Shown: in pieces, positions 24,890 to 38,503 of the stretch
How the letters are laid out: each line of letters opens with the position of its first letter
Position numbering within the stretch: position 1 is the stretch's first letter
From: a bacterium
Lineage (GTDB): Bacteria > Electryoneota > JAOADG01
Direction of reading: 5' to 3'
DNA length: 64,000 nucleotides
Assembly: GCA_963681965.1 (NCBI GenBank)
Contig: OY820579.1
Coordinates: 3,104,001 to 3,168,000, forward strand
Program-made: the position numbers and the translations under genes
Notes under the pieces: generated by a model
The model's database searches: none
Told to the model about the DNA's origin: nothing
What the model saw: the letters and a program-made list of their open reading frames with translations, nothing else

Positions 24890-26044
24890 GTGTCGTTTAA
24901 GGTTCAAATGTTGCTTTTCTTCGTCATCGCTTTTTCCGTTCTATTCGGAATACACTGGGTGGTATATCGCCACCTCCGATTTGCATTCGACATTCCATCC
25001 AATAGTCTCTGGCTGAAAATCAGTTTAGCTAGTCTCGCGATCTGGTTGCTCGTAGCAATGGTTGCCGGACGCAATTGGCCCAATGCATTTACCGAATTCA
25101 TGGTACTAATTGCATATTACTGGTTAGGATTCGCTGTATATCTATTTGTTCTAGGGTTTAGCTGCGAAATTCTTTCAGGAATAGCAGTACTTACCAAAGC
25201 ACCGAAGTGGTCCGGTTACTCGTTTGAAACGATACGCCACGCGATTGGCTTAGTTACTTTTTCAATTGCAATTCTGTTGTCGATCGCTGGAATCATCGTT
25301 GCCAATGGCAAACTAGTGGTTCGCCAGATTGAATATCAAACGGAAAAGCTTGATCCGTCACTAAATGGTTTTAAAATTGTCATGGTCAGCGACATTCATC
25401 TTGGGGCAGTGAATCGCTTAGGATTTGCCAATAAAGTCGCAACCGCCATCAATGACCGAAATCCCGATTTGGTAGTCATTCCCGGTGACGTCGCTGATGG
25501 CGATCGGCATCATTTACCCGAGAAAATCGCCGGTTTAAACAATATTCATGCGAAATATGGTAAATTCTGGTCGACTGGAAACCACGAGTACTATACCGGA
25601 ACTGGAATGGTAACTAATTCAATGGCAGCGAGTGGTATTCCTGTCCTGCGAAACAGTGCGATCCCAATTGCCGACGGGAAAATATTTGTCGCGGGCGTGA
25701 ATGATCCTACCGACAAATCGATGGGTGGAGAAGGGTGCGATATCCGAAAAGCGCTTTCAGAGATTGATCGGACTAAACCAGTCATCTTACTCTCACACCA
25801 GCCCCGACAATTTCGTGACGCATTCCAACTGGGCGCTGACATTATGCTTTCCGGACATACCCATGGCGGTCAAACCTGGCCGTTTAATTATATCGTCGAT
25901 CGCGTCTGGGAAATTCCTCGCGGTTCGCATTACGAAGGGAAAGGGTTACTCTATGTCTCGGTAGGATGTGGGACGTGGGGTCCACCGATGCGACTTTCAC
26001 AACCCCCGGAATTAGTCGAAATTACGCTGAAACGACCGAATTGA
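24890..26044 (+). CDS. Membrane-anchored metallophosphoesterase (YkuE-like)
   Basis: N-terminal TM helices; SDIHLG, GD, GNHE, SHQP, GHTHGGQ. Confidence 0.92.
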   Translation: MSFKVQMLLFFVIAFSVLFGIHWVVYRHLRFAFDIPSNSLWLKISLASLAIWLLVAMVAGRNWPNAFTEFMVLIAYYWLGFAVYLFVLGFSCEILSGIAVLTKAPKWSGYSFETIRHAIGLVTFSIAILLSIAGIIVANGKLVVRQIEYQTEKLDPSLNGFKIVMVSDIHLGAVNRLGFANKVATAINDRNPDLVVIPGDVADGDRHHLPEKIAGLNNIHAKYGKFWSTGNHEYYTGTGMVTNSMAASGIPVLRNSAIPIADGKIFVAGVNDPTDKSMGGEGCDIRKALSEIDRTKPVILLSHQPRQFRDAFQLGADIMLSGHTHGGQTWPFNYIVDRVWEIPRGSHYEGKGLLYVSVGCGTWGPPMRLSQPPELVEITLKRPN

Positions 26045-26065
26045 CTTTTCTTTTCTGGCAATTAT

Positions 26066-26650
26066 ATGTTTGAAAATATTAAAATTGGAATTTTAGCATT
26101 ACAAGGCGATAGCGAACCGCACCGGTTAATGATTGAATCGGTTGGTGCAATCGCTACCTATGTCCGGCGACCTCAAGAGTTAATCAATCTACACGGATTG
26201 TTGTTACCGGGTGGTGAATCGACCACTATGACCAAATTACTTGCATTTTCCGGTCTTGATTTAGCAATTCCGGAAGCAGTTCGCAGCGGAATGGCAATTT
26301 GGGGAACGTGTGCCGGTTGCATTTTGTTAGGCAAACAAGGTTCCGATCCCCGTGTTCGAAGCTTCCAATTACTTGATATTACCGTATCCCGAAACGCCTA
26401 TGGTCGGCAAACGGAATCGTTCACTGCACCAGTGGTTTTGAAATTCTCAACCGATCCAATTCCCGGCGTATTCATTCGCGCGCCGATCATTGAAACGATT
26501 GGATCGGGCATCGAAATCGTCGGAACTTACGAAAATCGTCCGGTTCACATCGAATCGGGACGCATTTGGGCTAGTACTTTCCACCCGGAGTTAACTCAGG
26601 ACAATCGGCTGCACCAGCGATTCATCTCGATGGCGGGATCTAACAAGTGA
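26066..26650 (+). CDS. pdxT: PLP synthase glutaminase subunit
   Basis: LALQGD, PGGESTT, GTCAG, RNAYGRQ, FIRAP, FHPE. Confidence 0.95.
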   Translation: MFENIKIGILALQGDSEPHRLMIESVGAIATYVRRPQELINLHGLLLPGGESTTMTKLLAFSGLDLAIPEAVRSGMAIWGTCAGCILLGKQGSDPRVRSFQLLDITVSRNAYGRQTESFTAPVVLKFSTDPIPGVFIRAPIIETIGSGIEIVGTYENRPVHIESGRIWASTFHPELTQDNRLHQRFISMAGSNK

Positions 26651-27540
26651 TGACAAAAGCGACTCGTAATGCGATTTTTGATCTCAAACGGCTTAGTACC
26701 GCTTACGAAAATGCCAGTCAGAAACAGCAATCGCTTCTGGTTGAATTCGACAATCTGGACTTCATGCGAGCCATTCCAGCGGAACAATTCGATCTAATCT
26801 ATCTCGATCCACCATTCTGCACCGGAAAACGCCAACAATTAATCGACAAAAGTACCTCCGATAAATGTGAATATGACGACCGTTGGACCGAGGGTTTCGA
26901 GCATTATCTGGAATGGATGAAAGTACGATTGACCGAAATCCACCGGTTGCTAAAACCAACTGGTACCCTATTTCTACACCTTGACAATCATGCTTCGCAT
27001 TATCTCAAAATCGAGTTGGACCGGATCTTCGGTGCTCAGCATTTCATTAATGAAATCATTTGGCATTATACCGGTGGCGGGAGAAGTCGAACGCGCTTCT
27101 CGAAGAAACACGACACCATCTTCTGGTATGGAAAATCGAAGAACTTCACTTTCAATATCGATACGATTCGCCAACCCTATAAATCGACTAGCGGCTACGC
27201 CCAATTTGGCATCGTCAGTGCTGCTGGAAAAAAATACTTGCCTCATCCCGACGGAACCCCGCTTGACGATGTCTGGGAGATTCCAATTGTCAATCCGATG
27301 GCAAATGAGCGGATTGGATATCCTACCCAGAAGCCCGAACAATTATTGGAAAGAATCATTCAAGTCGCATCCAATCAAGGTGATTTAATCGGCGATTTCT
27401 TCTGTGGGAGTGGAACGACGCTGGCTGTTGCGGAACGCTGTATGCGTAAGTGGGTTGGCTGTGATGCCTCGAGACAAGCAATCGATGTAGTCAAGAAACG
27501 ATTAACCGAAATCAATGCAAACTATTTATTTGTATCCTGA
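26647..27540 (+). CDS. Site-specific amino (N6A/N4C) DNA methyltransferase, beta class
   Basis: IYLDPPF catalytic motif precedes YPTQKP and DFFCGSGTT SAM motif. Confidence 0.92.
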   Translation: MMTKATRNAIFDLKRLSTAYENASQKQQSLLVEFDNLDFMRAIPAEQFDLIYLDPPFCTGKRQQLIDKSTSDKCEYDDRWTEGFEHYLEWMKVRLTEIHRLLKPTGTLFLHLDNHASHYLKIELDRIFGAQHFINEIIWHYTGGGRSRTRFSKKHDTIFWYGKSKNFTFNIDTIRQPYKSTSGYAQFGIVSAAGKKYLPHPDGTPLDDVWEIPIVNPMANERIGYPTQKPEQLLERIIQVASNQGDLIGDFFCGSGTTLAVAERCMRKWVGCDASRQAIDVVKKRLTEINANYLFVS

Positions 27541-27543
27541 TGA

Positions 27544-27882
27544 TTAAAATGGCATTCCCCCATTGAAGAACGAAGCAAATGGACCCGCCGCCTCCTGTAG
27601 TTGTCGGTACGCCTCTTGCTTGGTCTTTTCGAATGCTTTATTCATTACTTCTTGTACTTTCGTTTGAAGTTCGGTGTGTCGTTCTGGTGTCGATAGTTCC
27701 TCGCTAATCACAACCGATAAAATCGTTCCCGTTCCCGAGATTCTCACTTCAATCAATCCATCTTCGGAACGTTCAGTTAGTACCAGTGTACTAAGCTTTA
27801 ATTTCATCTCGGCTAGCTTGCCCTTCATCTGCTGCGCTTGCTGCATGATATCGAACATGCCACCGCCACCAAAAAGACTCAT
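27544..27882 (-). CDS. YbaB/EbfC nucleoid-associated protein
   Basis: MQQAQQM helix, GLIEVRISG, size and position downstream of dnaX. Confidence 0.82.
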   Translation of the reverse strand: MSLFGGGGMFDIMQQAQQMKGKLAEMKLKLSTLVLTERSEDGLIEVRISGTGTILSVVISEELSTPERHTELQTKVQEVMNKAFEKTKQEAYRQLQEAAGPFASFFNGGMPF

Positions 27883-27912
27883 CGAATATCTCCAAAGTCT
27901 GGTATGTGAAAA

Positions 27913-29340
27913 TCAATCGGGAATTGGCATCAATTTGTATTTCTCGACCAATTTCTGTAACTCCGGATACTCGGCAATCATCGCTGCCAATCGTTGATCC
28001 AGCGTGCCGGAAGGTCGAATTTCGTCTTCTTGATTGTGAGTAGTTGGCGCAACCGATCGCGGTCGAGCATGACGATTGGGGTCAATCGTCGGTCGACTTG
28101 GAGTTGGCGGTGTTTCAGTCGAGGTTTCGATCTTAGGTTTAGGGATTACGCGAGATTGAGCGACAACCGGTTCAACGATTAGAGTTTTTTTTTCCTCGCT
28201 GACACTCGCAATGCCACTTTCCAACGATTTTAGTAACGTTGCCAGATCGACTGTTCGATCGAGACGCGTTAATCGTTGCAATAGCATTTCGACGCGAAGT
28301 CGGGGATTGTAACTACCGCGCAGGGAAGTCTCGGTTTCGGCAGTCAATTTCAACATTCGCAACAAATCGTTTTCGTCGAAGAGTGGCGCTTCAGTTTCGT
28401 ATAATCGCCGCTCTTCAGGTGTGAGAGCCAATCCATTGGCAGTCTTGAGCACATTCACCCGTAAAAGTAGTAAAAGATGCTCCATCAGACCGCGAATGAA
28501 ATCCGACAAATCGGCGCCGGTATTCATTAATGCTGCTACAAACCCAAAAGTCTCCGCAGTCTCATTCATTCGAACCATGCGCGTAATATCGAAGAATCGG
28601 TCGCTTCTGATCAATCCCAGTGCAGTGATCACTTCACTTTCAGTGACATTCGTTCCGCAAAACGCAATCATTTGATCAAGTAGCGACAATCCATCGCGTA
28701 ACGATCCATCGCTGCGTCGTGCAAGGATCGCTGCCGCTCCCGGTTCCAACTCAAGCCCTTCTTTCGCAGCCAATGCGGTAAGATGTCCCGCGACTTCGGC
28801 GGCATCCAACCGACGAAATTCGAAGCGTTGGCATCGTGAGAGTACAGTTGGTGGAACTTGATGAACGTCGGTGGTGGCAAGAATGAATACTGCATGTTCC
28901 GGAGGTTCTTCCAATGTCTTCAAGAATGCGTTGAATGCTTCCTTGGTGAACATGTGGACTTCGTCAACGATGACGACCCGTCGACGACCGGTTGATGGGG
29001 CGAACCGGATGTTATCCCGTAAACTGCGGACATCTTCGACACCGCGATTGGATGCCGCATCGATTTCCAATACGTCTAGACTACGCCCTTCAGTAATCTG
29101 AACACAGCTTTCGCATTCGCCGCACGGTTCGGTAGTATCACCGTTTTTACAATTCAATGCTTTGGCAAGAATTCGGGCGACGGTTGTCTTTCCCACTCCG
29201 CGGGGACCACCAAACAGGTAAGCGTGAGCGATCCGTTTTTGTGAAATAGCGCGTGTGAGTGTTCCGGTAACGTGTTCTTGTCCAATCACTTCATCGAAGC
29301 GTTGGGGGCGATAACGGCGAGCTAAGACGATATAGGACAC
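27913..29340 (-). CDS. dnaX: DNA polymerase III subunit tau/gamma
   Basis: LARRYRP, GPRGVGKTT, Zn module, EIDAASN, DEVHM, LKTLEEPP, SRC; GTG start at 29340 with GGAG RBS. Confidence 0.96.
   Translation of the reverse strand: MSYIVLARRYRPQRFDEVIGQEHVTGTLTRAISQKRIAHAYLFGGPRGVGKTTVARILAKALNCKNGDTTEPCGECESCVQITEGRSLDVLEIDAASNRGVEDVRSLRDNIRFAPSTGRRRVVIVDEVHMFTKEAFNAFLKTLEEPPEHAVFILATTDVHQVPPTVLSRCQRFEFRRLDAAEVAGHLTALAAKEGLELEPGAAAILARRSDGSLRDGLSLLDQMIAFCGTNVTESEVITALGLIRSDRFFDITRMVRMNETAETFGFVAALMNTGADLSDFIRGLMEHLLLLLRVNVLKTANGLALTPEERRLYETEAPLFDENDLLRMLKLTAETETSLRGSYNPRLRVEMLLQRLTRLDRTVDLATLLKSLESGIASVSEEKKTLIVEPVVAQSRVIPKPKIETSTETPPTPSRPTIDPNRHARPRSVAPTTHNQEDEIRPSGTLDQRLAAMIAEYPELQKLVEKYKLMPIPD
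28185..28193 (-). other. A9 slippage/frameshift site in dnaX
   Basis: GAG GAA AAA AAA ACT; both shifted frames stop within 1-3 codons. Confidence 0.7.
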
Positions 29341-29360
29341 GAATACTCCGGATAACGAGA

Positions 29361-29479
29361 ACCGACCCGGTGGGTTCGGCGACCCGCGGCACAGGGATTC
29401 AGGCGGACCGTTGCTCCCTTCCGGGCCTAGCGGGGTTGAGCCGTCGCACCTTGCGCGGGACCGGACCCAGCGGGTCGGC
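29361..29479 (-). ncRNA. ffs: Signal recognition particle RNA
   Basis: AACCCCGCTAGGCCCGGAAGGGAGCAACGG helix-8 motif, GCGCAA/GTGCCGC flanks, closing stem GCCGACCCG/CGGGTCGGT; located upstream of dnaX. Confidence 0.9.
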
Positions 29480-29574
29480 AGTCGATCATCATGCGGAGAA
29501 TCACCGCACGAAGTGCAGGAAAGTTGCGATAAAAACGCGCAATTTCCAAATCTGAAACACAAAACTACTGAGAG

Positions 29575-29647
29575 TGGACCTGAGCGGGCTCGAACCGCTG
29601 ACCCCCACGTTGCGAACGTGGTGCTCTCCCAACTGAGCTACAGGCCC
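29575..29647 (-). tRNA. tRNA-Ala(CGC), CCA not encoded
   Basis: GGGCCTGTAGCTCAGTTGGGAGAGC, anticodon arm CCACG-TTCGCAA-CGTGG, GTTCGAG, G3:U70 identity pair. Confidence 0.95.
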
Positions 29648-29659
29648 TTCGAACCGTCA

Positions 29660-29688
29660 AATATAAAAGCTCCGGTTACACAAGTCAA
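29660..29688 (-). promoter_or_regulatory. Sigma70-type promoter of tRNA-Ala
   Basis: TTGACT-17 bp-TATATT. Confidence 0.65.
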
Positions 29689-29973
29689 ATTGCCGAACTG
29701 AGTGGCTCGATTTGATCACTTGCTTGAGATAAACCTACAGTTTATTGCTATTTGACCCGATATAACATCGGAAGAACTTTATAATTTTCATTAGTTTACA
29801 TATAACACTCTATTTCTTTTAAATCATTTATCATTGGATGACATTCATTGCGATTCTACTCATTCAACTGTATTCTGTAAATACCACTAAACTGATCGCA
29901 TTCGATTGCATGAACGGATCGGTAGTATTTCAATAGTTGTTCCGATCATTTACCATTTCACTGTGAGTTGAAT

Positions 29974-30618
29974 ATGATCGATTTTCGAACCATCGAGGCA
30001 GATTTTCACGCCGAATTGGCGATGTTAAATCAGCAAAACGCCGAAAAGATCCTAGTCGATGCTGCATCTCAATACCCGATCTCAGATTTCGTCCAGGATG
30101 TAATCGTCCCCCTGCTGGTAAAATTGGGGAATGAATGGGAACAAGGGAAATTGGCGTTGGCACACATTTACATGAGTGGAAAGATCTGTGAACGAATCAT
30201 CGATCGCCTGCTCCCACCAGCTTCCCCGAGTCGAATGAAAACGCCACTCATCGGTATCGCGGTACTTGAAGATTATCATTTACTTGGCAAGCGCATCGTG
30301 ATATCTGCCGTTCGGTCGGCAGGTTTCGATATTGTGGATCTGGGACACGGGATGAAGGCAAATCAATTGGTTGAAAAAACCGTCGCTCGAAATATTGACG
30401 TCCTGCTGATCTCGACGCTCATGCTCCCTTCTGCATTGAAAGTAAAGGACGTTCGAACCGCACTTAATATTTTAAAGCCGAATGTGAAGATTATCGTTGG
30501 GGGTGCTCCATTCCGGTTCGATGATGCGCTTTGGCAGGAAGTTGGAGCCGATGCAATGGGATTGAATGGATTCGATGCTCCCGAACTAATCGCACGATTT
30601 TCTCGAGGTGCAGCATGA
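29974..30618 (+). CDS. Cobalamin-binding (corrinoid) protein
   Basis: B12 cap domain LGNEWEQG, DYHLLGKRIV (DxHxxG), STLM, IVGGAPF; alternative TTG start at 29968. Confidence 0.9.
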   Translation: MIDFRTIEADFHAELAMLNQQNAEKILVDAASQYPISDFVQDVIVPLLVKLGNEWEQGKLALAHIYMSGKICERIIDRLLPPASPSRMKTPLIGIAVLEDYHLLGKRIVISAVRSAGFDIVDLGHGMKANQLVEKTVARNIDVLLISTLMLPSALKVKDVRTALNILKPNVKIIVGGAPFRFDDALWQEVGADAMGLNGFDAPELIARFSRGAA

Positions 30619-31667
30619 ACGAACAATATACTCCGATGCAACGGGTATTGACTGCACTGAGTCATAAAGAACCCGACCGCATCCCTTTTCTTCTGGGTCT
30701 TACTCTGCATGGTGCCAAAGAGACCGGTCTCACGATCAAGGATTATTTCAGTCATCCCGATCATGTTACTGCAGGTCAATTGCAGTTGCAGGCAAAGTAT
30801 CAGGATGATGGCGTCTATGGATTTTATTATGCAGCTGCGGAAATTCTCCCTTGGGGTGGTGAAATCATCTTTTCCGAGGATGGTCCACCCAATTCAGGAC
30901 GACCTCCGCTGCTCGATCTTGAATCGATCCTCAAGCTGAAAGCACCCAGCTATCGCGATGCACCAGTCTTGATGCACACGATTGAAACGATCAGACAATT
31001 GAAACATCAATTGGGTGAAACCATTCCGATTTTCGGCGTTGCGATTTCGCCATTCTCGCTGCCAGTGTTGCAATTGGGCTTCGATCACTATTTCGATATC
31101 ATGAGCGAACGGCACGATCTGTTCGACCGGTTAATGGAATTGAATCAAGCGTATTGTATTGAATGGGCGAATGCCCAACTGGAAGCCGGTGCTACGGCGA
31201 TCGTCTACTTCGATCCGGTATCGTCTCCGACCATTGTACCTCGGATTGAATATCTCAGAACCGGTTTTCAAATCGCTAAGAAAGTTATTCCGCAAATCAA
31301 GGGAGCTGTTGCTGTTCACTTTGCGTCAGGCAATACCTTTGGCATAGTAAACGATGTAGTGGATTCCGGTGCTCTGGTAGTGGGCGTTAGTTCGAAAGAA
31401 GATCTTGCAGAATTGAAAAAAGTTACCGCGGGTCGAATTGGGATCATCGGCAATTTGAATGCGATTCGAATGCGGCGCTGGACACCGGCTGAAACGGAAG
31501 CGGAAGTAAAATTTGCGATTGCTTCGGCTGGTCCCGGAGGCGGTTTTGTTTTATCCGACAACCATGGTGAGATTCCCTGGCAAGTACCGGATGAAGTTCT
31601 ATTCGCAATCGCCGAGAATGTCCGGAAATGGGGTCAATATCCTTTAACCTGGATTCATCAGAAATGA
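30615..31667 (+). CDS. URO-D superfamily / MtaA-CmuA (MT2)-like protein
   Basis: TPMQRVLTAL...EPDRIP, QLEAGA, DPVSS, IIGNL, GGGFVLS; ATGA overlap with upstream gene. Confidence 0.85.
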   Translation: MNEQYTPMQRVLTALSHKEPDRIPFLLGLTLHGAKETGLTIKDYFSHPDHVTAGQLQLQAKYQDDGVYGFYYAAAEILPWGGEIIFSEDGPPNSGRPPLLDLESILKLKAPSYRDAPVLMHTIETIRQLKHQLGETIPIFGVAISPFSLPVLQLGFDHYFDIMSERHDLFDRLMELNQAYCIEWANAQLEAGATAIVYFDPVSSPTIVPRIEYLRTGFQIAKKVIPQIKGAVAVHFASGNTFGIVNDVVDSGALVVGVSSKEDLAELKKVTAGRIGIIGNLNAIRMRRWTPAETEAEVKFAIASAGPGGGFVLSDNHGEIPWQVPDEVLFAIAENVRKWGQYPLTWIHQK

Positions 31668-32956
31668 AATCGAAAATTGGATTGATTGTTTGTCCATTTC
31701 TGCGAACTGAACTCGAGCTGGCAGCAAAAGACGATTTCTTTAAAGGGATGGAAATCCTCCACGCACCGCTCAATTGCAATGCTCGAAACAATGACAAAGA
31801 ACGGTTCAAACAGTGGCTGGAAAAAAACTGTGAAGACTTCGAAGTGATCTTCTCGATCGGATGTCGCTGTATCAATTTCGATTTCGTCGAAACTAGCAAT
31901 CTGAAAGCCAAAATCAAGTATCTCTCCAGTGAACAATGTATGGATGTGCTGGCTGGCAAAGCCTTCATCCGACAGTTACTTGCCGATGGGGCTTATCTGA
32001 CAACCCCCGGCTGGATTGCCAACTGGCAGAAATACATCCATGAATGGGGATTTACCTCGGATACAGTCGGAGAATTCCTGCGGGAGACTACTAAAAAAAT
32101 AGTACTGCTTGATACCGGAATTGATCCCGACGCTGAAAAGAAAGCCCAGCGATTTGCCGCCTGTTGCGAACTCCCCTGCGAAATTCATCAGGTCGGCTTT
32201 GAAGGTCTGATTGCCCACTTACGCGGATTATCTGCCGAAACGGTGTTAGCCCAGCGACAACAGGAACATATCGCACAATTGAAAGCCACCACTTCGCGCT
32301 CCGCCGAATACGCCATGATCTTCGATCTCTTTGCCGACCTCTCCAGCATGGATACGGAAGAAAATGTAATCGATCGCTTTCTGATGATGTTCCAAGGATT
32401 ATTTGCACCACAGACGTTACGGTTTTACGCCTTGCATTCATTTATCAACGATACGATCTATTCAATTGGAGAAACCACGACATCGGCGGAGAGCTGCAAA
32501 CAAATTCAACAGGAACTACCTTCCGGTTTCGAAGATAAAATTCTCGATAACCGTCTCTTGATAGAAATCCGCTTTAAGGATGAGCGACTCGGTATTCTCG
32601 AAATCGATCATTTCACTTTTCCGGAATATATCCATCGCTATCGCGATCTTGCCAGAACCATCGGTACCGTCTTTGGATTGGCATTGGCAAATTCACGCAA
32701 CTATTACCGGTTGGAAGCGACGAATACCGAACTCATCAATACTTTGGATCAGGTGAAAACGTTGCGGGGATTGCTTCCAATCTGCGCCTCCTGCAAGAAA
32801 ATCCGCGACGACACCGGGTATTGGAACAGTATCGAAGCCTATTTGTCGAGTCATTCAGAAGTCGAGTTTACTCACAGTCTGTGTCAGGATTGCGTCGAAA
32901 AACTATATCCGGAATTATTTCATAAACAAATCGATCGAACTGTAGAAGACGATTAA
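31664..32956 (+). CDS. DUF1638-like domain + GAF-like region + coiled coil + C-terminal Cys/His domain
   Basis: VCPF, GCRC, QCMDVLAG, YLTTPGW, LLDTG (DUF1638-like); LALANSR helix; LLPICASCKKIRDD.GYW...FTHSLCQDC. Confidence 0.72.
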   Translation: MKSKIGLIVCPFLRTELELAAKDDFFKGMEILHAPLNCNARNNDKERFKQWLEKNCEDFEVIFSIGCRCINFDFVETSNLKAKIKYLSSEQCMDVLAGKAFIRQLLADGAYLTTPGWIANWQKYIHEWGFTSDTVGEFLRETTKKIVLLDTGIDPDAEKKAQRFAACCELPCEIHQVGFEGLIAHLRGLSAETVLAQRQQEHIAQLKATTSRSAEYAMIFDLFADLSSMDTEENVIDRFLMMFQGLFAPQTLRFYALHSFINDTIYSIGETTTSAESCKQIQQELPSGFEDKILDNRLLIEIRFKDERLGILEIDHFTFPEYIHRYRDLARTIGTVFGLALANSRNYYRLEATNTELINTLDQVKTLRGLLPICASCKKIRDDTGYWNSIEAYLSSHSEVEFTHSLCQDCVEKLYPELFHKQIDRTVEDD

Positions 32957-33029
32957 TAGACTAAATGTCTGTTTTTATACACAAACAATACCAAATTCTT
33001 TCGCCCAATATTTACTTAAATTCGACCCG

Positions 33030-33058
33030 TTGCATTTCGCAGAAAAAAAACATAAATT
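33030..33058 (+). promoter_or_regulatory. Sigma70-type promoter of tRNA-Leu
   Basis: TTGCAT-17 bp-TAAATT. Confidence 0.55.
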
Positions 33059-33074
33059 ACTGCCCTACTGTTCA

Positions 33075-33161
33075 GCCGGGGTGGTGGAACTGGTAGACGC
33101 AGTGGACTCAAAATCCACCGAGCGCAAGCTCATGCCGGTTCGAGTCCGGCCCTCGGCACCA
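33075..33161 (+). tRNA. tRNA-Leu(CAA)
   Basis: GCCGGGG acceptor, anticodon arm GTGGA-CTCAAAA-TCCAC, long variable arm, GTTCGAG, encoded CCA. Confidence 0.96.
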
Positions 33162-33164
33162 ATC

Positions 33165-33195
33165 AGACGTATCGATCCATCGATACGTCTTTTTT
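33165..33195 (+). terminator. Intrinsic terminator after tRNA-Leu
   Basis: AGACGTATCGA-TCCA-TCGATACGTCT followed by TTTTT. Confidence 0.8.
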
Positions 33196-33370
33196 CTTGA
33201 CTTCGATTTGTCCATCCATCACATAATTCCTCACCGATTCTGCTATGAATCGTTGCAAAATCTTGCCATAAACCATTATTATATATTGTTAGATTCTGTT
33301 CATACTTGGATTCGATCAATAACTTAATCTAAGTAAAGAATCAATAGTCATTTAACAAGGCGGTATCGCT

Positions 33371-36300
33371 ATGCAACTCCGAACGCGCTCAGTGAATACG
33401 GATCCCTTCGATCGATCGATCCGGGATCATTCATTGACCTTTGGAAAATCCGGTAGCTGTGATTTCGGCACCGTGGGACGGTTTCTGATCGCAGCTCTGT
33501 TGGCGTTGTTGAGTACAGTTTCGATAGCATCGACCAATTCTGTCGATGAGATCAATACTGTTCTATTCAGCACCGGATTTGAAAGCACCTTTCCCCCTCC
33601 CGGCTGGGTGATCGGCGACGGTGGTGTACCGAATAACACCGGCTATCATTGGGGTCTAAATACCGTAAATGCGCAAACTGGAACCTATAGCGCATTCTGT
33701 GCGAGCAACGACGATACCGGCGCTTGGACTTACTTGCACAGTATGCGCAAAGTACTGCAAACACCGACCTTCGATCTTTCCGCCGCAGTGGCATCGATGT
33801 TGCATTTCTCCGTCTGGATGAATACCGAAGCTGATAACGATCAACTCATTGTTGCGATCCGCGATCCTCGCGGAATATGGCAGAATTTGCGGATATTAAG
33901 CGGTTCGGCACAGTCGTGGCAAACCTTCGATGTTTCATTGTGGAATTACATCGGTCAAAATGGTGTGGCGATTCAATTTGTGTTCACTTCCAACGGGAGT
34001 ACAATCCCTACCGGTAATGCCGGTGTCTGGTTGGACAATGTTTCGCTTGAAGCCAACCTCGCTACAGTTGGTGTGACACTTACCAACCCGACCGGTGGTG
34101 AAAACTGGGGCGTTGGGTCGAGACAGGAAATTACCTGGTACGCTAACGGATTCGGTGCCAATGACAATATGAATGTCGAAATCAATCGTGAATATTCCGG
34201 CGGCACTTGGACGTTACTCGGTACGGTTCCGAATTCCGGTTCTTTTCCTTGGACAGTCACCAACCCGATTGGATCGACCAATCGCATCAAAGTCTATCCG
34301 CAAAGCAATGCATCGATCTATGGAATGTCGACGAGCAACTTTACCATTTCCGGCGGTGTGACTCCAGTTATTCAAGTCACTACCCCGGCTGGAGGCGAAC
34401 ATTGGTATACCGGCGAGCAACATACGATCCAATGGACATCGACCAACTTAACCGATAATGTTCAAATCGATCTGAAAGCCGATACGACAACAACAGTTCA
34501 TATCACGAATTCGACACCTAATTCCGGTTCTTACACTTGGTCGATACCGACTGGACTAGTAGCTAGCACTGCTTATCGGATTTACATCAGTAACGCCACC
34601 TCCCCGGTTACCGCTGATGATTACAGCAGTTACTTCTCAATTGCTGCCGGACAGGTGAATTACACAATTTCCGGGTATGTACGCGATTCGCAATCGAATG
34701 GTATCAGCGGTGTTTCGATTTCCGGTATGACGAATACCGTGACCACAGATCAGAACGGATACTATTCAGGATCGGTCTCCTCCGACTGGTCGGGTACATT
34801 AACACCGTCGCTTACCGGATATACTTTCTCGCCGCAAACGATTACTCTATCCCACGTCACATCCAATCAGACATCGCAGAATTTTACTGCAACACCAACA
34901 GGATCTTCAATAACTATTTCGGGATATGTTCGAAATTCGGCTTCGAATGCGATTAGTGGTGTAACAATCTCCGGACTACCGGGTATCGTCCAGACTGATA
35001 ACAACGGTTTCTATAGTGCCACCGTCTCAAGCGGGTGGTCAGGTACGGTCACACCATCACTATCCGGATGGACATTCGCCCCGACGAATCGAACCTATAA
35101 CGGTATAACGGTATCGCAGTCAAGCCAAAACTACACTGCGACTCAAGTATCGATCACGTATTTTATCAGTGGGTATGTTCGCGATACCAATTCACAGCCG
35201 ATTGCGAATGTCGTGATGTCAGGCTTCCCAAACTACGTTACAACTGATGCCAATGGATTTTATCAAACTTTCATGGCGACCGGTTGGAGCGGAACAGTAA
35301 CACCGCAGTTAACCGGTTACTCATTTGTCCCGGACCATTACACCTACACCGCTTTAACAGGTAATCTATCGGGTCAAAATTACACTGGAACGCTTGCGAC
35401 TTCGGTAATAATCTCCGGGTACATCCGCAATTCCTCGTCGAATCCAATCAGTGGTGTGACGCTTTCGGGTCTGCCCGGAACAATTCAATCGGATAATGAT
35501 GGATTTTATAGCGCAACGGTCTCGAGTGGATGGTCGGGAACAGTCACACCGACGCTGTCCGGATGGTCCTTCGCACCCACTAACCGTACCTATAGCAGTG
35601 TAACGACATCGCAATTCAATCAGAATTTCACTGCCACGCAAGTATCCATCACATATTTTATTAGTGGTCATGTCCGAAACAGTAGTTCTCAACCCATCGC
35701 GAACGTCGTGATGTCCGGTTTTCCGAGTTACGTTGCCACCGATACCGCCGGTTTTTATCAAACGTTCTTAGCAATGGGCTGGAGTGGTACGGTAACACCA
35801 CAACTGACCGGTTATACTTTTTCACCCGATCATATCACGTTCTCGGCGTTGACTGGTAACCAGACTGCCCAGAATTTCACCGCGACGCTCAGCACCACCG
35901 CAATCATTTCCGGAATCATTCGCGATCAAAATTTAATTCCCATTGCCGGCGTAGCCATGGCAGGATTCCCCGGATCCATTGTTACCAATGCATCGGGAGT
36001 ATATACCGTCACCCTTAGTCGGGGATGGTCGGGAACTGTTACTCCGCAATTAGTCGGTTGGAATTTCACTCCGTCGGGTCGAACCTATTTCAATGTCTCT
36101 GGATCGCAAACCACCGAAAATTATTCCGGGACGCCAAACGGACTAGCTTTTACGATCTCCGGTTTTATCCGCGATGTAAATTCGGTGCCCATCTCCGGTG
36201 TTGCGATGACCGGTTTTCCATCGACCATCCTTAGCGATACTTCCGGATACTATATCGGCACAGTACCGCGAAATTGGTCGGGTGCGATTTCACCACAAGC

Positions 36301-38503
36301 GACGGGGCGTAACTTTGAACCGGTATCGCGTAGCTATTCGAACATCACGTCCAATGTGGTAAATAACAATTATACTGCCGTATCGGCAATCCAGTATATC
36401 GTCTCGGGACACGTTTTAACTTCATCTGGCACAGCCGTATCGGGTGTAGAGCTTACCGGCTATCCATATTCGGTCGTAACCGATCAAAATGGTTCTTATT
36501 CCGCATTAGTGCATTCCGGTTGGAACGGTCTCATTGTTCCGCGATTGACGGGATACTCGTTCACACCGGTTTTCCGAAACTACACGGGCGTTGTCGCAAA
36601 TATGGCGAATGAAGATTTCGTTGCGACTGTAATTCCAACATTCACTATTTCTGGATATGTCCGGTATGCTTCGGGACGAGCACTTCGTAACGTCCAGTTG
36701 AAAGGTCTACCGAGCACTGTTCGCACCGATTCGACCGGATTTTATACCGCGACGGTCAGTTCTGGTTGGTCGGGCGCAATCTCGCCAACTCGAAGTGGAT
36801 GGATTTTTCAACCACCTTCTCGGGGATACACGAATCTGACCACGGGAAGAAGCGATCAAAATTATACCTGTTTGGAATCGTCACTGGATATCGGCGGGTA
36901 CATCCACAATTCTCGATCGGAACCATTGGCAGACGTTCGGTTATTTGGGTTACCCGGAGTTGTCGTAACCGATTCAAATGGCGATTACACCATCACGATT
37001 CCCCAGAATTGGACGGGAACAGTCACACCCCAACTTGAGGGGTGGAACTTCACTCCCTCTTCGCGAAGCTACACCAACTATGACACTTCGCATTACAACG
37101 AAGGTTTCGCTGCGACCGCCACAAGCAATGTAATCGTCTCCGGATATATTCAGGAGGCGAATAATCTGGGTACCCGCAATGTTTCGATCTCGGGTTTCCC
37201 AATGACTGTCTATTGTGATCAAAGCGGGTATTACTCTTGTGCGGTTCCCAATAATTGGAGTGGAACCATTTCACCGCAATCACAGCATTGGTCGTTCTTC
37301 CCACCGACACGCGCATTTTACTTATTGACCAGCAGCTCCCCGTATGAGAACTTCACAGCATCGCGAACCGAGTATGAAATTGCCGGAACAATCCTCGATA
37401 CAGCAGGAGAGGCGATGGCAGGATTGTCGATCAGTGGCTTTCCTACGACCGTGGTCACGCAAAATGATGGTACCTATTCGGTATTCATTTCAAACGGCTG
37501 GAGTGGCGTCGTAACGCCAGCATCGATGCGTCACTCATTTGCCCCGGTTACGCGAACTTATACCAATGTTCAAAGTGACATATTGACCGAGGATTATGTT
37601 GCGACACCATTATTCATCAGCATTGATTATCCAAATGGACCCGGTATCACCTGGAGTACCGCAACCAATCAATTTATCTCCTGGTTTGGAGGAACCCCGG
37701 GTGGGACGGTTACAATCGAATTGAATCGCAATTATCCCACCGGCACTTGGTCGACAATCCGTCAGGGCACTGGAAGCAGTTCCCAGATTTCCAACACCGG
37801 TCGTTTCGACTGGCTGGTATATGGTCCACGGTGCGAAGCATCGGCGCGGTTCCGCATTACCGACAATACGACGCAACTCCAAGCGATGAGTAATTTCAAT
37901 CTTCAGATCAACGATGTATCGATCAATCGACCGACGGCATCCGATATTTGGCTTTACCATGGCACTGGAATCATCGATTGGGATATCAACCAGCAACCAA
38001 ATTTACCGGTCGATATTATTCTCGTACGGGATGGTACTTGGATTCCTATCATTCGCAATACCGCGAATTCCGGTCATTACGAATGGTTTGTCACGGCGCA
38101 GCAATCGGCGAATTGCCAAGTGTACGTCAAATCGGTCGGCGACAATGACTATACACGTTTCGCCACATCGCCAACATTTACGATCCTCGGTTTTGATGCC
38201 GGTGCAAATGAAACATCCCTACCGAAGCAGTTTGCCATGCATCCCGCCAGTCCAAATCCGTTCAATTCCACCGTCTCTTTCCGGGTCGATCTCCCGACGC
38301 GTGCCGTGACGGAATTCGTGATCTACGATGTTCGCGGAGCAACGGTTAGGGAACAACGCCTCGGAACGATGAATCCGGGAACATACCAGTTCCAATGGGA
38401 TGGCAGAAATCAAACCGGAAACAGTGTCCCTTCCGGGCTGTACATCGTGCATCTGCGCAGTGGCGAACACCAAGCCTTACAGAAAGTAGTACTTGTAAAG
38501 TAG
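33371..38503 (+). CDS. Large secreted surface protein: MAM/adhesin-like domain, Ser/Thr-rich Ig-like domains, 12 tandem beta-sandwich repeats, T9SS/FlgD-like C-terminal domain
   Basis: Hydrophobic signal segment; GFESTFPP..GVWLDNV; PTGGENW/PAGGEHW domains; ISGYVR...WSGTVTP repeats; PNPFN...IYDVRG...WDGRN...PSGLY...KVVLVK; true start may lie downstream. Confidence 0.85.
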   Translation: MQLRTRSVNTDPFDRSIRDHSLTFGKSGSCDFGTVGRFLIAALLALLSTVSIASTNSVDEINTVLFSTGFESTFPPPGWVIGDGGVPNNTGYHWGLNTVNAQTGTYSAFCASNDDTGAWTYLHSMRKVLQTPTFDLSAAVASMLHFSVWMNTEADNDQLIVAIRDPRGIWQNLRILSGSAQSWQTFDVSLWNYIGQNGVAIQFVFTSNGSTIPTGNAGVWLDNVSLEANLATVGVTLTNPTGGENWGVGSRQEITWYANGFGANDNMNVEINREYSGGTWTLLGTVPNSGSFPWTVTNPIGSTNRIKVYPQSNASIYGMSTSNFTISGGVTPVIQVTTPAGGEHWYTGEQHTIQWTSTNLTDNVQIDLKADTTTTVHITNSTPNSGSYTWSIPTGLVASTAYRIYISNATSPVTADDYSSYFSIAAGQVNYTISGYVRDSQSNGISGVSISGMTNTVTTDQNGYYSGSVSSDWSGTLTPSLTGYTFSPQTITLSHVTSNQTSQNFTATPTGSSITISGYVRNSASNAISGVTISGLPGIVQTDNNGFYSATVSSGWSGTVTPSLSGWTFAPTNRTYNGITVSQSSQNYTATQVSITYFISGYVRDTNSQPIANVVMSGFPNYVTTDANGFYQTFMATGWSGTVTPQLTGYSFVPDHYTYTALTGNLSGQNYTGTLATSVIISGYIRNSSSNPISGVTLSGLPGTIQSDNDGFYSATVSSGWSGTVTPTLSGWSFAPTNRTYSSVTTSQFNQNFTATQVSITYFISGHVRNSSSQPIANVVMSGFPSYVATDTAGFYQTFLAMGWSGTVTPQLTGYTFSPDHITFSALTGNQTAQNFTATLSTTAIISGIIRDQNLIPIAGVAMAGFPGSIVTNASGVYTVTLSRGWSGTVTPQLVGWNFTPSGRTYFNVSGSQTTENYSGTPNGLAFTISGFIRDVNSVPISGVAMTGFPSTILSDTSGYYIGTVPRNWSGAISPQATGRNFEPVSRSYSNITSNVVNNNYTAVSAIQYIVSGHVLTSSGTAVSGVELTGYPYSVVTDQNGSYSALVHSGWNGLIVPRLTGYSFTPVFRNYTGVVANMANEDFVATVIPTFTISGYVRYASGRALRNVQLKGLPSTVRTDSTGFYTATVSSGWSGAISPTRSGWIFQPPSRGYTNLTTGRSDQNYTCLESSLDIGGYIHNSRSEPLADVRLFGLPGVVVTDSNGDYTITIPQNWTGTVTPQLEGWNFTPSSRSYTNYDTSHYNEGFAATATSNVIVSGYIQEANNLGTRNVSISGFPMTVYCDQSGYYSCAVPNNWSGTISPQSQHWSFFPPTRAFYLLTSSSPYENFTASRTEYEIAGTILDTAGEAMAGLSISGFPTTVVTQNDGTYSVFISNGWSGVVTPASMRHSFAPVTRTYTNVQSDILTEDYVATPLFISIDYPNGPGITWSTATNQFISWFGGTPGGTVTIELNRNYPTGTWSTIRQGTGSSSQISNTGRFDWLVYGPRCEASARFRITDNTTQLQAMSNFNLQINDVSINRPTASDIWLYHGTGIIDWDINQQPNLPVDIILVRDGTWIPIIRNTANSGHYEWFVTAQQSANCQVYVKSVGDNDYTRFATSPTFTILGFDAGANETSLPKQFAMHPASPNPFNSTVSFRVDLPTRAVTEFVIYDVRGATVREQRLGTMNPGTYQFQWDGRNQTGNSVPSGLYIVHLRSGEHQALQKVVLVK
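34661..37605 (+). repeat. 12 intragenic tandem repeats of about 82 aa
   Basis: Consensus xISGYVRD....I.GV..SG.P..V.TD.NG.Y...V..GWSGTVTP...G..F.P..R.Y.......N(F/Y)TA. Confidence 0.9.

Follow-up and report, generated by a model that had tools for sequence, protein, structure and literature searches.

A candidate corrinoid-state sensor: a three-gene cassette joining a corrinoid protein and a zinc-less URO-D-like protein to a GAF-like signalling protein with interchangeable outputs

What can be the task of a corrinoid protein and a methyltransferase-like partner whose genes are joined to that of a signalling protein? This question is raised by a cassette at positions 29974-32956 of a 64,000-nucleotide (nt) stretch of DNA from a bacterium of the Electryoneota (assembly GCA_963681965.1, contig OY820579.1, positions 3,104,001 to 3,168,000), the whole of which is called the window here. 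The cassette comprises three genes on the + strand. Gene 1 (29974-30618; 214 amino acids, aa) encodes a corrinoid protein and gene 2 (30615-31667; 350 aa) a TIM-barrel protein of the URO-D/MtaA type that lacks the zinc cysteines of MtaA, both recognized from their open reading frames (ORFs) and Pfam matches. Gene 3 (31664-32956; 430 aa) encodes a signalling protein made of DUF1638, GAF-like and Cys/His domains, as judged from its ORF, Pfam, and AlphaFold2 with Foldseek. Genes 1 and 2, and genes 2 and 3, overlap by 4 nt, the downstream ATG beginning one base ahead of the preceding stop. Since T and G are shared by start and stop, the stop must be TGA and both junctions read ATGA, as a preliminary description made from the sequence alone had stated. 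We lean, with moderate confidence, towards the view that the cassette is a self-contained three-protein module that senses the state of a corrinoid. The signal would be the methylation or redox state of this corrinoid.

The preliminary description had named a survey of gene neighbourhoods as the test of such an idea, asking whether the triad recurs and whether its outputs are interchangeable. The outcome was positive on both counts. A scan with one genome per species turned up 107 sensor relatives, of which the 80 best loci were retained. Profile hidden Markov models detected the DUF1638 sensor in 80 of 80 loci, a URO-D orthologue on its strand likewise in 80 of 80, and the corrinoid gene in 74 of 80. 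Among the six loci where the latter was missed, four have the URO-D gene itself cut at a contig end, one has only 411 nt of sequence upstream, and the last one (L028) is a genuine absence. Counted by BLAST, the URO-D gene lies directly upstream of the sensor gene in 79 of 80 cases and the corrinoid gene is present in 72 of 80. This count leaves out L053, whose sensor is broken up into two ORFs, and includes two sensors from L092. The sensor start, inferred from homology, lies ahead of the URO-D stop in 56 of 79 junctions, and the distance is at most 38 nt in 75 of 79. The signalling gene is translationally coupled to the URO-D gene in most loci. The median identity to relatives is 53% for the URO-D-like protein and 45% for the corrinoid protein, with 19-32% for the sensor. 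The carriers belong to Desulfobacterota, Chloroflexota, Acidobacteriota, Verrucomicrobiota, Nitrospirota, Spirochaetota, Riflebacteria and Actinomycetota, among others, and include one Methanobacteriota archaeon. Cultivated organisms are represented too, for example Desulfonema magnum (L034), Geomonas (L052) and Oscillochloris (L043). When all ORFs in the 6-kb flanks of the 80 loci were clustered, no further gene family recurred in more than 10 loci; the next-largest clusters (10 and 9 loci) consist of antisense ORFs over the triad itself.

Some of these loci depart from the common arrangement. One of them (L092:1112-7668) carries tandem sensors, the first with corrinoid and URO-D genes upstream and the second with a corrinoid gene only. 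The split sensor mentioned above (L053:5818-8016), a URO-D match with three in-frame stops (L120) and URO-D genes split into two ORFs (L033, L058, L073) are probably decayed or mis-assembled.

The outputs were examined in 73 sensors, that is, the gene 3 product and 72 relatives with a complete 3' end, eight sensors cut at contig ends being left out. DUF1638 is matched in 72 of the 73. A HATPase_c domain is matched in 32 of them (with HisKA in 25, a receiver in 11 and Hpt in 3), GGDEF in 23 and SpoIIE, of the PP2C phosphatase type, in one. The Cys/His domain closes 13 sensors; in two others there is just a coiled coil at the end, and one has a different ending. No methyl-accepting chemotaxis protein (MCP) output, which the preliminary description had listed beside kinase, GGDEF and PP2C, was found among the 73 sensors. 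In a library of all proteins, residues 1 to about 357 of gene 3 correspond to one conserved N-terminal unit of proteins of 400-1400 aa, and the search retrieved 295 representatives at E ≤ 1e-30. The GAF-like domain is conserved in the DUF1638 fusions with every type of output.

Gene 3 had been read as a DUF1638-like domain fused to a GAF-like region, a coiled coil and a Cys/His domain, and this architecture is borne out by Pfam and by the modelled structure. PF07796 (DUF1638) matches residues 61-180 with 39.7 bits (gathering cut-off 27), and outside this domain nothing in the protein is matched by Pfam or NCBIfam at E ≤ 1, GAF models included. The AlphaFold2 model (mean pLDDT, the predicted local distance difference test, 87.4) is divided into five parts: after DUF1638 come two long helices, at residues 180-226 and 320-368, the first of which leads to an alpha/beta domain (232-315) and the second to a small beta/alpha domain (370-419). 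On the + strand of the window, the DUF1638 domain (residues 1-180, with cysteines C10, C38, C69 and C92) occupies 31664-32203 and the long connecting helix (pLDDT 87-93) 32201-32341. The GAF-like domain, common to all cassette variants, spans residues 227-345 (32342-32698). Foldseek assigns this middle domain to the GAF fold with probability 1.0, in a part of the model where pLDDT is 82-95, with TM-scores, normalised by target, of 0.67 for 4g3k, 0.58 for 2w3e, 0.58 for 3p01 and 0.52 for 5w10. Residues 346-368 (32699-32767), which are part of the modelled helix 320-368, lead into the output domain.

The Cys/His output domain itself (residues 369-430, with tail and stop codon; 32768-32956, + strand) contains C374, C377, H397, H404, C407 and C410. 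The motif reads P-I-C-x2-C-K-K-I-R-D-D-x-G-x-W ... H ... F-x-H-x2-C-x2-C over residues 362-420, the consensus and positions being derived from 130 of 266 stored proteins. The domain, at 32768-32923, also closes GAF, PAS, receiver, HAMP, dCache and TPR proteins, with 55-73% identity, and probably binds zinc. It is very common, yet it has no Pfam family and is represented in the Atlas only by unnamed clusters, among them some of 75-95 aa. A whole-library search with the gene 3 product gave 15,377 representatives at E ≤ 1e-10, and the lower-ranked ones among the matches listed share the Cys/His domain only. The best solved structure retrieved by sequence for this end of the protein, an unrelated glycerophosphotransferase (E 0.0057), was rejected as not credible.

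The two upstream genes encode the parts expected to hold and to handle a corrinoid. The gene 1 product has a four-helix cap followed by a Rossmann B12-binding domain, and its matches to PF02607 (B12-binding_2; 33.9 bits) and PF02310 (B12-binding; 64.9 bits) both pass the Pfam cut-offs. Its score against TIGR02370 is 73.2 bits, under the NCBIfam cut-off of 215.3. D100-x-H102-x-x-G105, S147-x-L149 and G176-G177 show no variation across 47 orthologues; cap and B12-binding domain with the DxHxxG, SxL and GG motifs are the features of the corrinoid proteins of three-component methyltransferase systems. Judging from these motifs, the protein presumably binds a cobamide in His-on fashion, in the pocket customary for such proteins. 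As regards the published signature of B12 photoreceptors (GxxW, EH, GxxH, GxxxP), the GxxW of the CarH type is found as G52-N-E-W55, and the EH dipeptide occurs nowhere in the gene 1 product. The signature is thus incomplete. The consensus of the family in the cap helix is Q64-x-Y66, at a place which presumably matches the EH site of CarH.

Gene 2 had been described as MT2-like, that is, similar to the second methyltransferase of such systems. This holds for its fold and its nearest relatives and fails for the metal site. The protein matches PF01208 (URO-D) with 159.8 bits. The nearest NCBIfam families are of the MtaA/CmuA type, with scores far under their cut-offs: 82.4 bits against TIGR01463 (MtaA/CmuA; cut-off 235.4), 69.2 against NF040654 (cut-off 400) and 66.2 against NF041608 (cut-off 600), and the protein cannot be assigned to MtaA, CmuA or MtbA on these grounds. 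The structure of MtaA, 4ay7, is among its best solved relatives (E 2.3e-11). The thiol-activating zinc site of MtaA is His-x-Cys...Cys, placed here by means of the MtaA alignment. In this alignment, H-I-C-G-N of MtaA stands opposite H-F-A-S-G-N of gene 2, and P-G-C-G opposite D-N-H-G, so that gene 2 does not carry the His-x-Cys...Cys site of methyltransferase systems. Moreover, no cysteine is conserved among 72 aligned orthologues, in which H317-G-E-I-P321 is conserved to at least 95%, as are about 60 further positions. Because the MtaA cysteines are replaced and none is conserved in the 72 orthologues, gene 2 is best placed in a branch of the URO-D/MtaA family devoid of zinc cysteines. A role of gene 2 as a substrate-specific methyltransferase (MT1) of the URO-D type is also conceivable.

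How could the state of the corrinoid reach the third protein? The preliminary description had cast DUF1638 as the reader of corrinoid state. Its cysteines C10, C38, C69 and C92 are kept in 47, 45, 42 and 44 of 47 sensors, respectively. In the AlphaFold2 model, the first four beta strands, in the first lobe, are each succeeded by one of these cysteines. Such a position is typical of metal sites, and the four cysteines are a candidate for one. In five stand-alone DUF1638 proteins collected through PF07796, comparison by eye of the printed sequences places Cys-His-Cys-Cys at the same four positions. Residues 1-200 of gene 3 were modelled in complex with the corrinoid protein in three runs, with three controls, from alignments made by the authors and with no cofactor. 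The interface score ipSAE was 0.74 (runs 0.72, 0.74 and 0.77), as against 0.00 for the best control; the runs share at least 81% of their contacts, with a partner pLDDT of at least 77. Of 80 solved complexes, 58 attain the mark used for this score, as do 2 of 110 mismatched pairs; given the author-made alignments, these counts apply only roughly here. On the corrinoid side, the modelled interface is made of the conserved cap helix 55-66 and of the cofactor-lining loops 100-104, 149-152 and 177-186; on the DUF1638 side, of residues 38-43, 68-71 and 89-92, around C38, C69 and C92. The model supports an arrangement in which the four-cysteine face of DUF1638 would lie against the side of the corrinoid protein that bears the cofactor. 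The multimer structure prediction proposed beforehand as a check thus speaks for contact between the two (0.74 vs 0.00).

No solved structure was found by sequence with the DUF1638 profile (best E 0.46). Submitted alone to Foldseek, the domain gives weak matches to two-lobed alpha/beta proteins, namely CbiK (E 4.6e-4, TM-score 0.30) and LacI/periplasmic-binding folds (about 0.4). DUF1638 also forms the N-terminus of open frames of 946-1032 aa in other genomes (L139, G366:C1:3991000-3995000; G355; G107), and these fit the Pfam model far better, with E about 1e-40. In a genetic study, a stand-alone DUF1638 protein is tied to a split B12-dependent methionine synthase and a RamA-like activator, and no specific function is proposed (PMC5764234). 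A later paper has DUF1638 "predicted" to help recharge cobalamin (PMC12478193).

DUF1638 is not an obligatory part of the cassette. When one class of bacteria was surveyed starting from the URO-D gene, 25 of 301 genomes carried an orthologue, exactly one each. The corrinoid gene lies upstream in 24 of these 25 loci, the exception being cut at a contig end. The downstream gene encodes a sensor with DUF1638 and the GAF-like domain in 12 of the 25 and a protein lacking DUF1638 in 11, two loci giving no data; in all 23 informative loci it has a GAF-like domain. The DUF1638-less proteins, of about 230-270 aa, match gene 3 from residue 164-214 onward with 31-40% identity and thus keep its helix, GAF-like and Cys/His parts, the GAF-like domain being conserved at 34-40% identity. 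For 9 of these 11 loci the sequence was extended to 12-13 kb, and a profile search (E ≤ 1e-3) found no DUF1638 in any of the 9; PF07796 had no match genome-wide in 2 of 5 genomes with a DUF1638-less cassette, whose completeness is not given. Because 11 of 23 third genes do without DUF1638, the helix and GAF-like unit can be regarded as the constant receiver and DUF1638 as an added input. Of the preliminary claim on DUF1638, contact with the corrinoid protein is supported by the model; a role as the obligatory reader is not supported.

The same genome offers a second example. About 270 kb away and outside the window, a second cassette (L012:4064-10831, - strand; G000:C1:3404000-3420000) encodes a PAS protein, a corrinoid protein, a URO-D-like protein and a 1335-aa GAF-PAS-HisKA-HATPase-receiver kinase. 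Its genes overlap by 1-4 nt, and genes for CheW and a 998-aa MCP are found just upstream. Its URO-D-like protein is 28% identical to gene 2, it contains no DUF1638, and BLAST detects no similarity between the gene 3 product and its signalling proteins (best E 0.77 and 1.8). In another genome (L134), an orthologous URO-D gene (51% identity) and a gene with an orthologous kinase N-terminus (43%) have a stand-alone DUF1638 gene between them, and for this reason the second cassette can be considered as a DUF1638-less copy of a sister type. DUF1638 is dispensable in both types of cassette.

The genome of this cassette, assembled in one contig and 99.9% complete, provides little of the surroundings of a corrinoid methyltransferase pathway. 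The preliminary description had noted that no MT1, no RamA/ASKHA activator and no folate methyltransferase is nearby. Inspection of the neighbouring genes agrees with this for MT1, activator and folate methyltransferase, and the absence extends to the whole genome for RamA/RACo (0 matches to PF14574) and for MttB and MtaB (0 matches to PF06253 and PF12176). No substrate-specific MT1 occurs among the neighbours of the cassette and none recurs in the 80 loci. Pterin-binding domains are found in one FolP-like ORF and one MetH ORF. The only two URO-D family genes (PF01208) of the genome both lie directly ahead of genes for signalling proteins. Ordinary HemE was not detected, the PF01208 matches being the two cassette genes only; haem may be made by a different route in this genome, or there may be no haem route.

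The immediate surroundings of the cassette, given as divergent tRNA genes and AT-rich flanks, were found as described. tRNA-Ala(CGC) (29574-29647, - strand) is on its left and tRNA-Leu(CAA) (33075-33161, + strand) on its right; lying on opposite strands, the two are divergent. Between tRNA-Ala and gene 1, a 326-nt AT-rich leader (29648-29973, + strand; GC content 0.39-0.40) is presumed to be the promoter region. GC content is 0.39-0.40 over 29600-30199 and 0.42-0.44 over 32600-33599, compared with 0.44-0.58 elsewhere in 26000-37000. The AT-richness of the flanks is genuine though modest (0.39-0.44). Scans of the locus for promoters and terminators gave matches no commoner than in shuffled sequence; the leader contains 7 sigma-70-like matches, against a mean of 6.0 after shuffling. 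The neighbours are genes for a DNA methylase, YbaB, DnaX and a surface protein of 1710 aa built of repeats. The last one (33371-38503) has about 20 CarboxypepD_reg-like repeats and a C-terminal domain of the FlgD_ig type, and is probably secreted. The longest ORF of dnaX (27913-29562) opens at a TTG and reaches almost to the tRNA-Ala gene; the Pfam-matching part starts well 3' of that TTG, so that the true start is probably later.

Neither type of URO-D gene was detected at E ≤ 1e-30 in 78 other genomes of the phylum. In a genome of the same genus (96% complete; L131), the gene that follows the orthologous tRNA-Ala is an unrelated 383-aa gene on the - strand. Because the cassette is missing from the 78 genomes and from this tRNA-Ala site, it was probably acquired next to a tRNA gene. 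No clear foreign island is apparent around it from base composition.

These data can be assembled into a mechanism. The URO-D-like barrel would most likely dock on the upper face of the cofactor, like its methyltransferase relatives, and would set or gate the state of the cofactor, methyl-Co(III), Co(II) or Co(I). The cue for a change of state may be a small molecule or a redox condition. The gene 3 product would be the receiver, its helix and GAF-like unit relaying the change along the long helix to the output, here the Cys/His domain and in relatives a kinase, a diguanylate cyclase or a PP2C phosphatase. DUF1638, with its candidate four-residue metal site, would be an optional extra input, which may take part in electron exchange with the cobalt or else sense the cobalt's upper ligand. 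More generally, it can be proposed, as a tentative extension that we regard as rather doubtful, that protein-bound cobamide serves as a signalling currency, with a zinc-less URO-D-like writer, GAF-like receivers with or without DUF1638, and varied outputs.

A sensor is preferred to a pathway because RamA, MttB and MtaB are missing, because no partner enzyme is conserved and because the signalling gene is coupled and swaps its outputs. It should, however, be noted that several observations weigh against this preference. The URO-D-like protein, the best conserved of the three, surpasses the sensor in this respect. A true enzyme acting on one fixed substrate would be conserved in this way, and a metabolic role thus keeps some likelihood; the conservation suggests either real catalysis or a very specific ligand. 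The output of the present copy rests on a Cys/His domain without known function. The complex was modelled without cobalamin, and residues 100-104 and 177-179 of the interface normally line cobalamin; therefore, the partner may fill an empty pocket. Finally, DUF1638 is missing from 11 of the 23 cassettes found through URO-D, about half, and is therefore not a general reader.

The first of these points leads to the view that genes 1 and 2 form a metabolic methyltransferase pair, for instance for the demethylation of ethers, halides or other methyl donors, the third gene only regulating the pathway. The median identity of 53% across phyla is indeed enzyme-like. In the mec cluster for dichloromethane, URO-D-family MT1 enzymes are found beside corrinoid proteins and a sensor kinase (PMC9768040), and in another paper GSU2386/2387 are guessed to serve acetyl-CoA formation (PMC7894505). 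However, the triad is not regularly accompanied by another methyltransferase, by an activator or by a transporter, the present genome has no RamA, MttB or MtaB, gene 2 has lost the MtaA zinc ligands, each of the 25 cassette-bearing genomes of the class survey has a single copy, and in most loci the signalling gene is translationally coupled to the URO-D gene. A metabolic pair is thus considered unlikely.

The loss of the catalytic zinc site would also agree with a sensor of cobamide or tetrapyrrole availability, which would distinguish holo from apo protein or recognize the identity of the upper or lower ligand, the barrel and DUF1638 being tetrapyrrole-handling partners rather than catalysts. 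The B12-binding domain, the URO-D fold and GAF are all tetrapyrrole-handling folds, and the best Foldseek match of DUF1638, though weak, is the cobalt chelatase CbiK. Nevertheless, LacI/periplasmic-binding folds score equally well, and holo/apo sensing would not require so conserved a barrel. In cells, B12 is usually sensed by riboswitches, which further speaks against this possibility, and we hold it to be quite improbable. Still more doubtful is light sensing in the manner of CarH, AerR or photocobilins, in which photolysis of B12 would be relayed to the sensor; we give it very little credence. It can be argued that the two-domain architecture is that of the CarH light module, that GxxW is present at G52-W55, that some carriers are phototrophic Chloroflexota, and that B12 domains couple to GAF, GGDEF, kinase and SpoIIE domains in photoglobin and photocobilin systems, according to two studies (PMC8717448, PMC11796333). 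However, the signature given in the second of these also requires EH (PMC11796333), which gene 1 lacks; the URO-D partner has no place in known photoreceptors; and many carriers (Smithella, Syntrophales, Desulfobacterales, the Methanobacteriota archaeon) are dark-living anaerobes.

The known forms of B12-based regulation are riboswitches and light-driven photoreceptors. Under the preferred reading, that of a corrinoid-state sensor, the cassette would represent a new class of sensory input in anaerobes of many phyla and in some archaea, feeding two-component, cyclic di-GMP and other signalling. It would also offer a handle on the role of DUF1638, on the Cys/His output domain and on an MtaA/URO-D branch devoid of zinc. 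If the more doubtful proposal of cobamide as a signalling currency held, this would be a third mode of B12-based regulation and would give DUF1638 and the abundant Cys/His domain their first functions. With the kinase and cyclase versions, the sensor idea can be tested directly in vitro, and the present genome, with one cassette that has DUF1638 and one that does not, provides a natural comparison. No published description of the cassette was found in the literature searched, which did not cover supplements, in agreement with the earlier statement that no characterised system of this kind was known. The only published mention of its Geobacter members that we found is the guessed role in acetyl-CoA formation (PMC7894505).

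Several known systems nevertheless share parts of this arrangement. In MtaC/MtaA, MtbC/MtbA and MtaA/CmuA systems, a separate gene for a B12 protein with a cap and a His-on cofactor likewise stands beside a gene for a URO-D-fold barrel. The present cassette differs in scoring under the family cut-offs, in having no zinc cysteines, no MT1 and no RamA, and in its third gene, which encodes a signalling protein. In the split methionine synthase of Phaeobacter inhibens, as described by Price et al. (2018, PMC5764234), DUF1638 is similarly tied to a separate protein with a cap and a B12-binding domain. There, DUF1638 stands alone in a biosynthetic operon, whereas in the cassette it forms one protein with a GAF-like signalling part, in a genome without RamA; in addition, the second ligand position is Cys in the cassette sensor and His in stand-alone DUF1638. 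CarH, photocobilin and photoglobin-B12 proteins also have a module that unites B12-binding_2 with B12-binding and feeds GGDEF, kinase or SpoIIE outputs. In contrast with these photoreceptors, the cassette has no EH and no bilin or photoglobin domain, but an obligatory URO-D-like partner. Finally, the mec cassette (PMC9768040) sets side by side a kinase (MecA), a corrinoid protein (MecB), URO-D family proteins (MecC/E/I) and a methyltransferase MTII (MecF). This cluster is, however, larger and metabolic, with several methyltransferases, a pterin-binding MTII, a transporter and a kinase with a PocR input, none of which is conserved around the present triad. Thus, the families of the parts are known, and it is their wiring that appears new: a corrinoid protein with a zinc-less URO-D-like partner would signal, by the mechanism that we infer, to a GAF-like receiver with interchangeable outputs.

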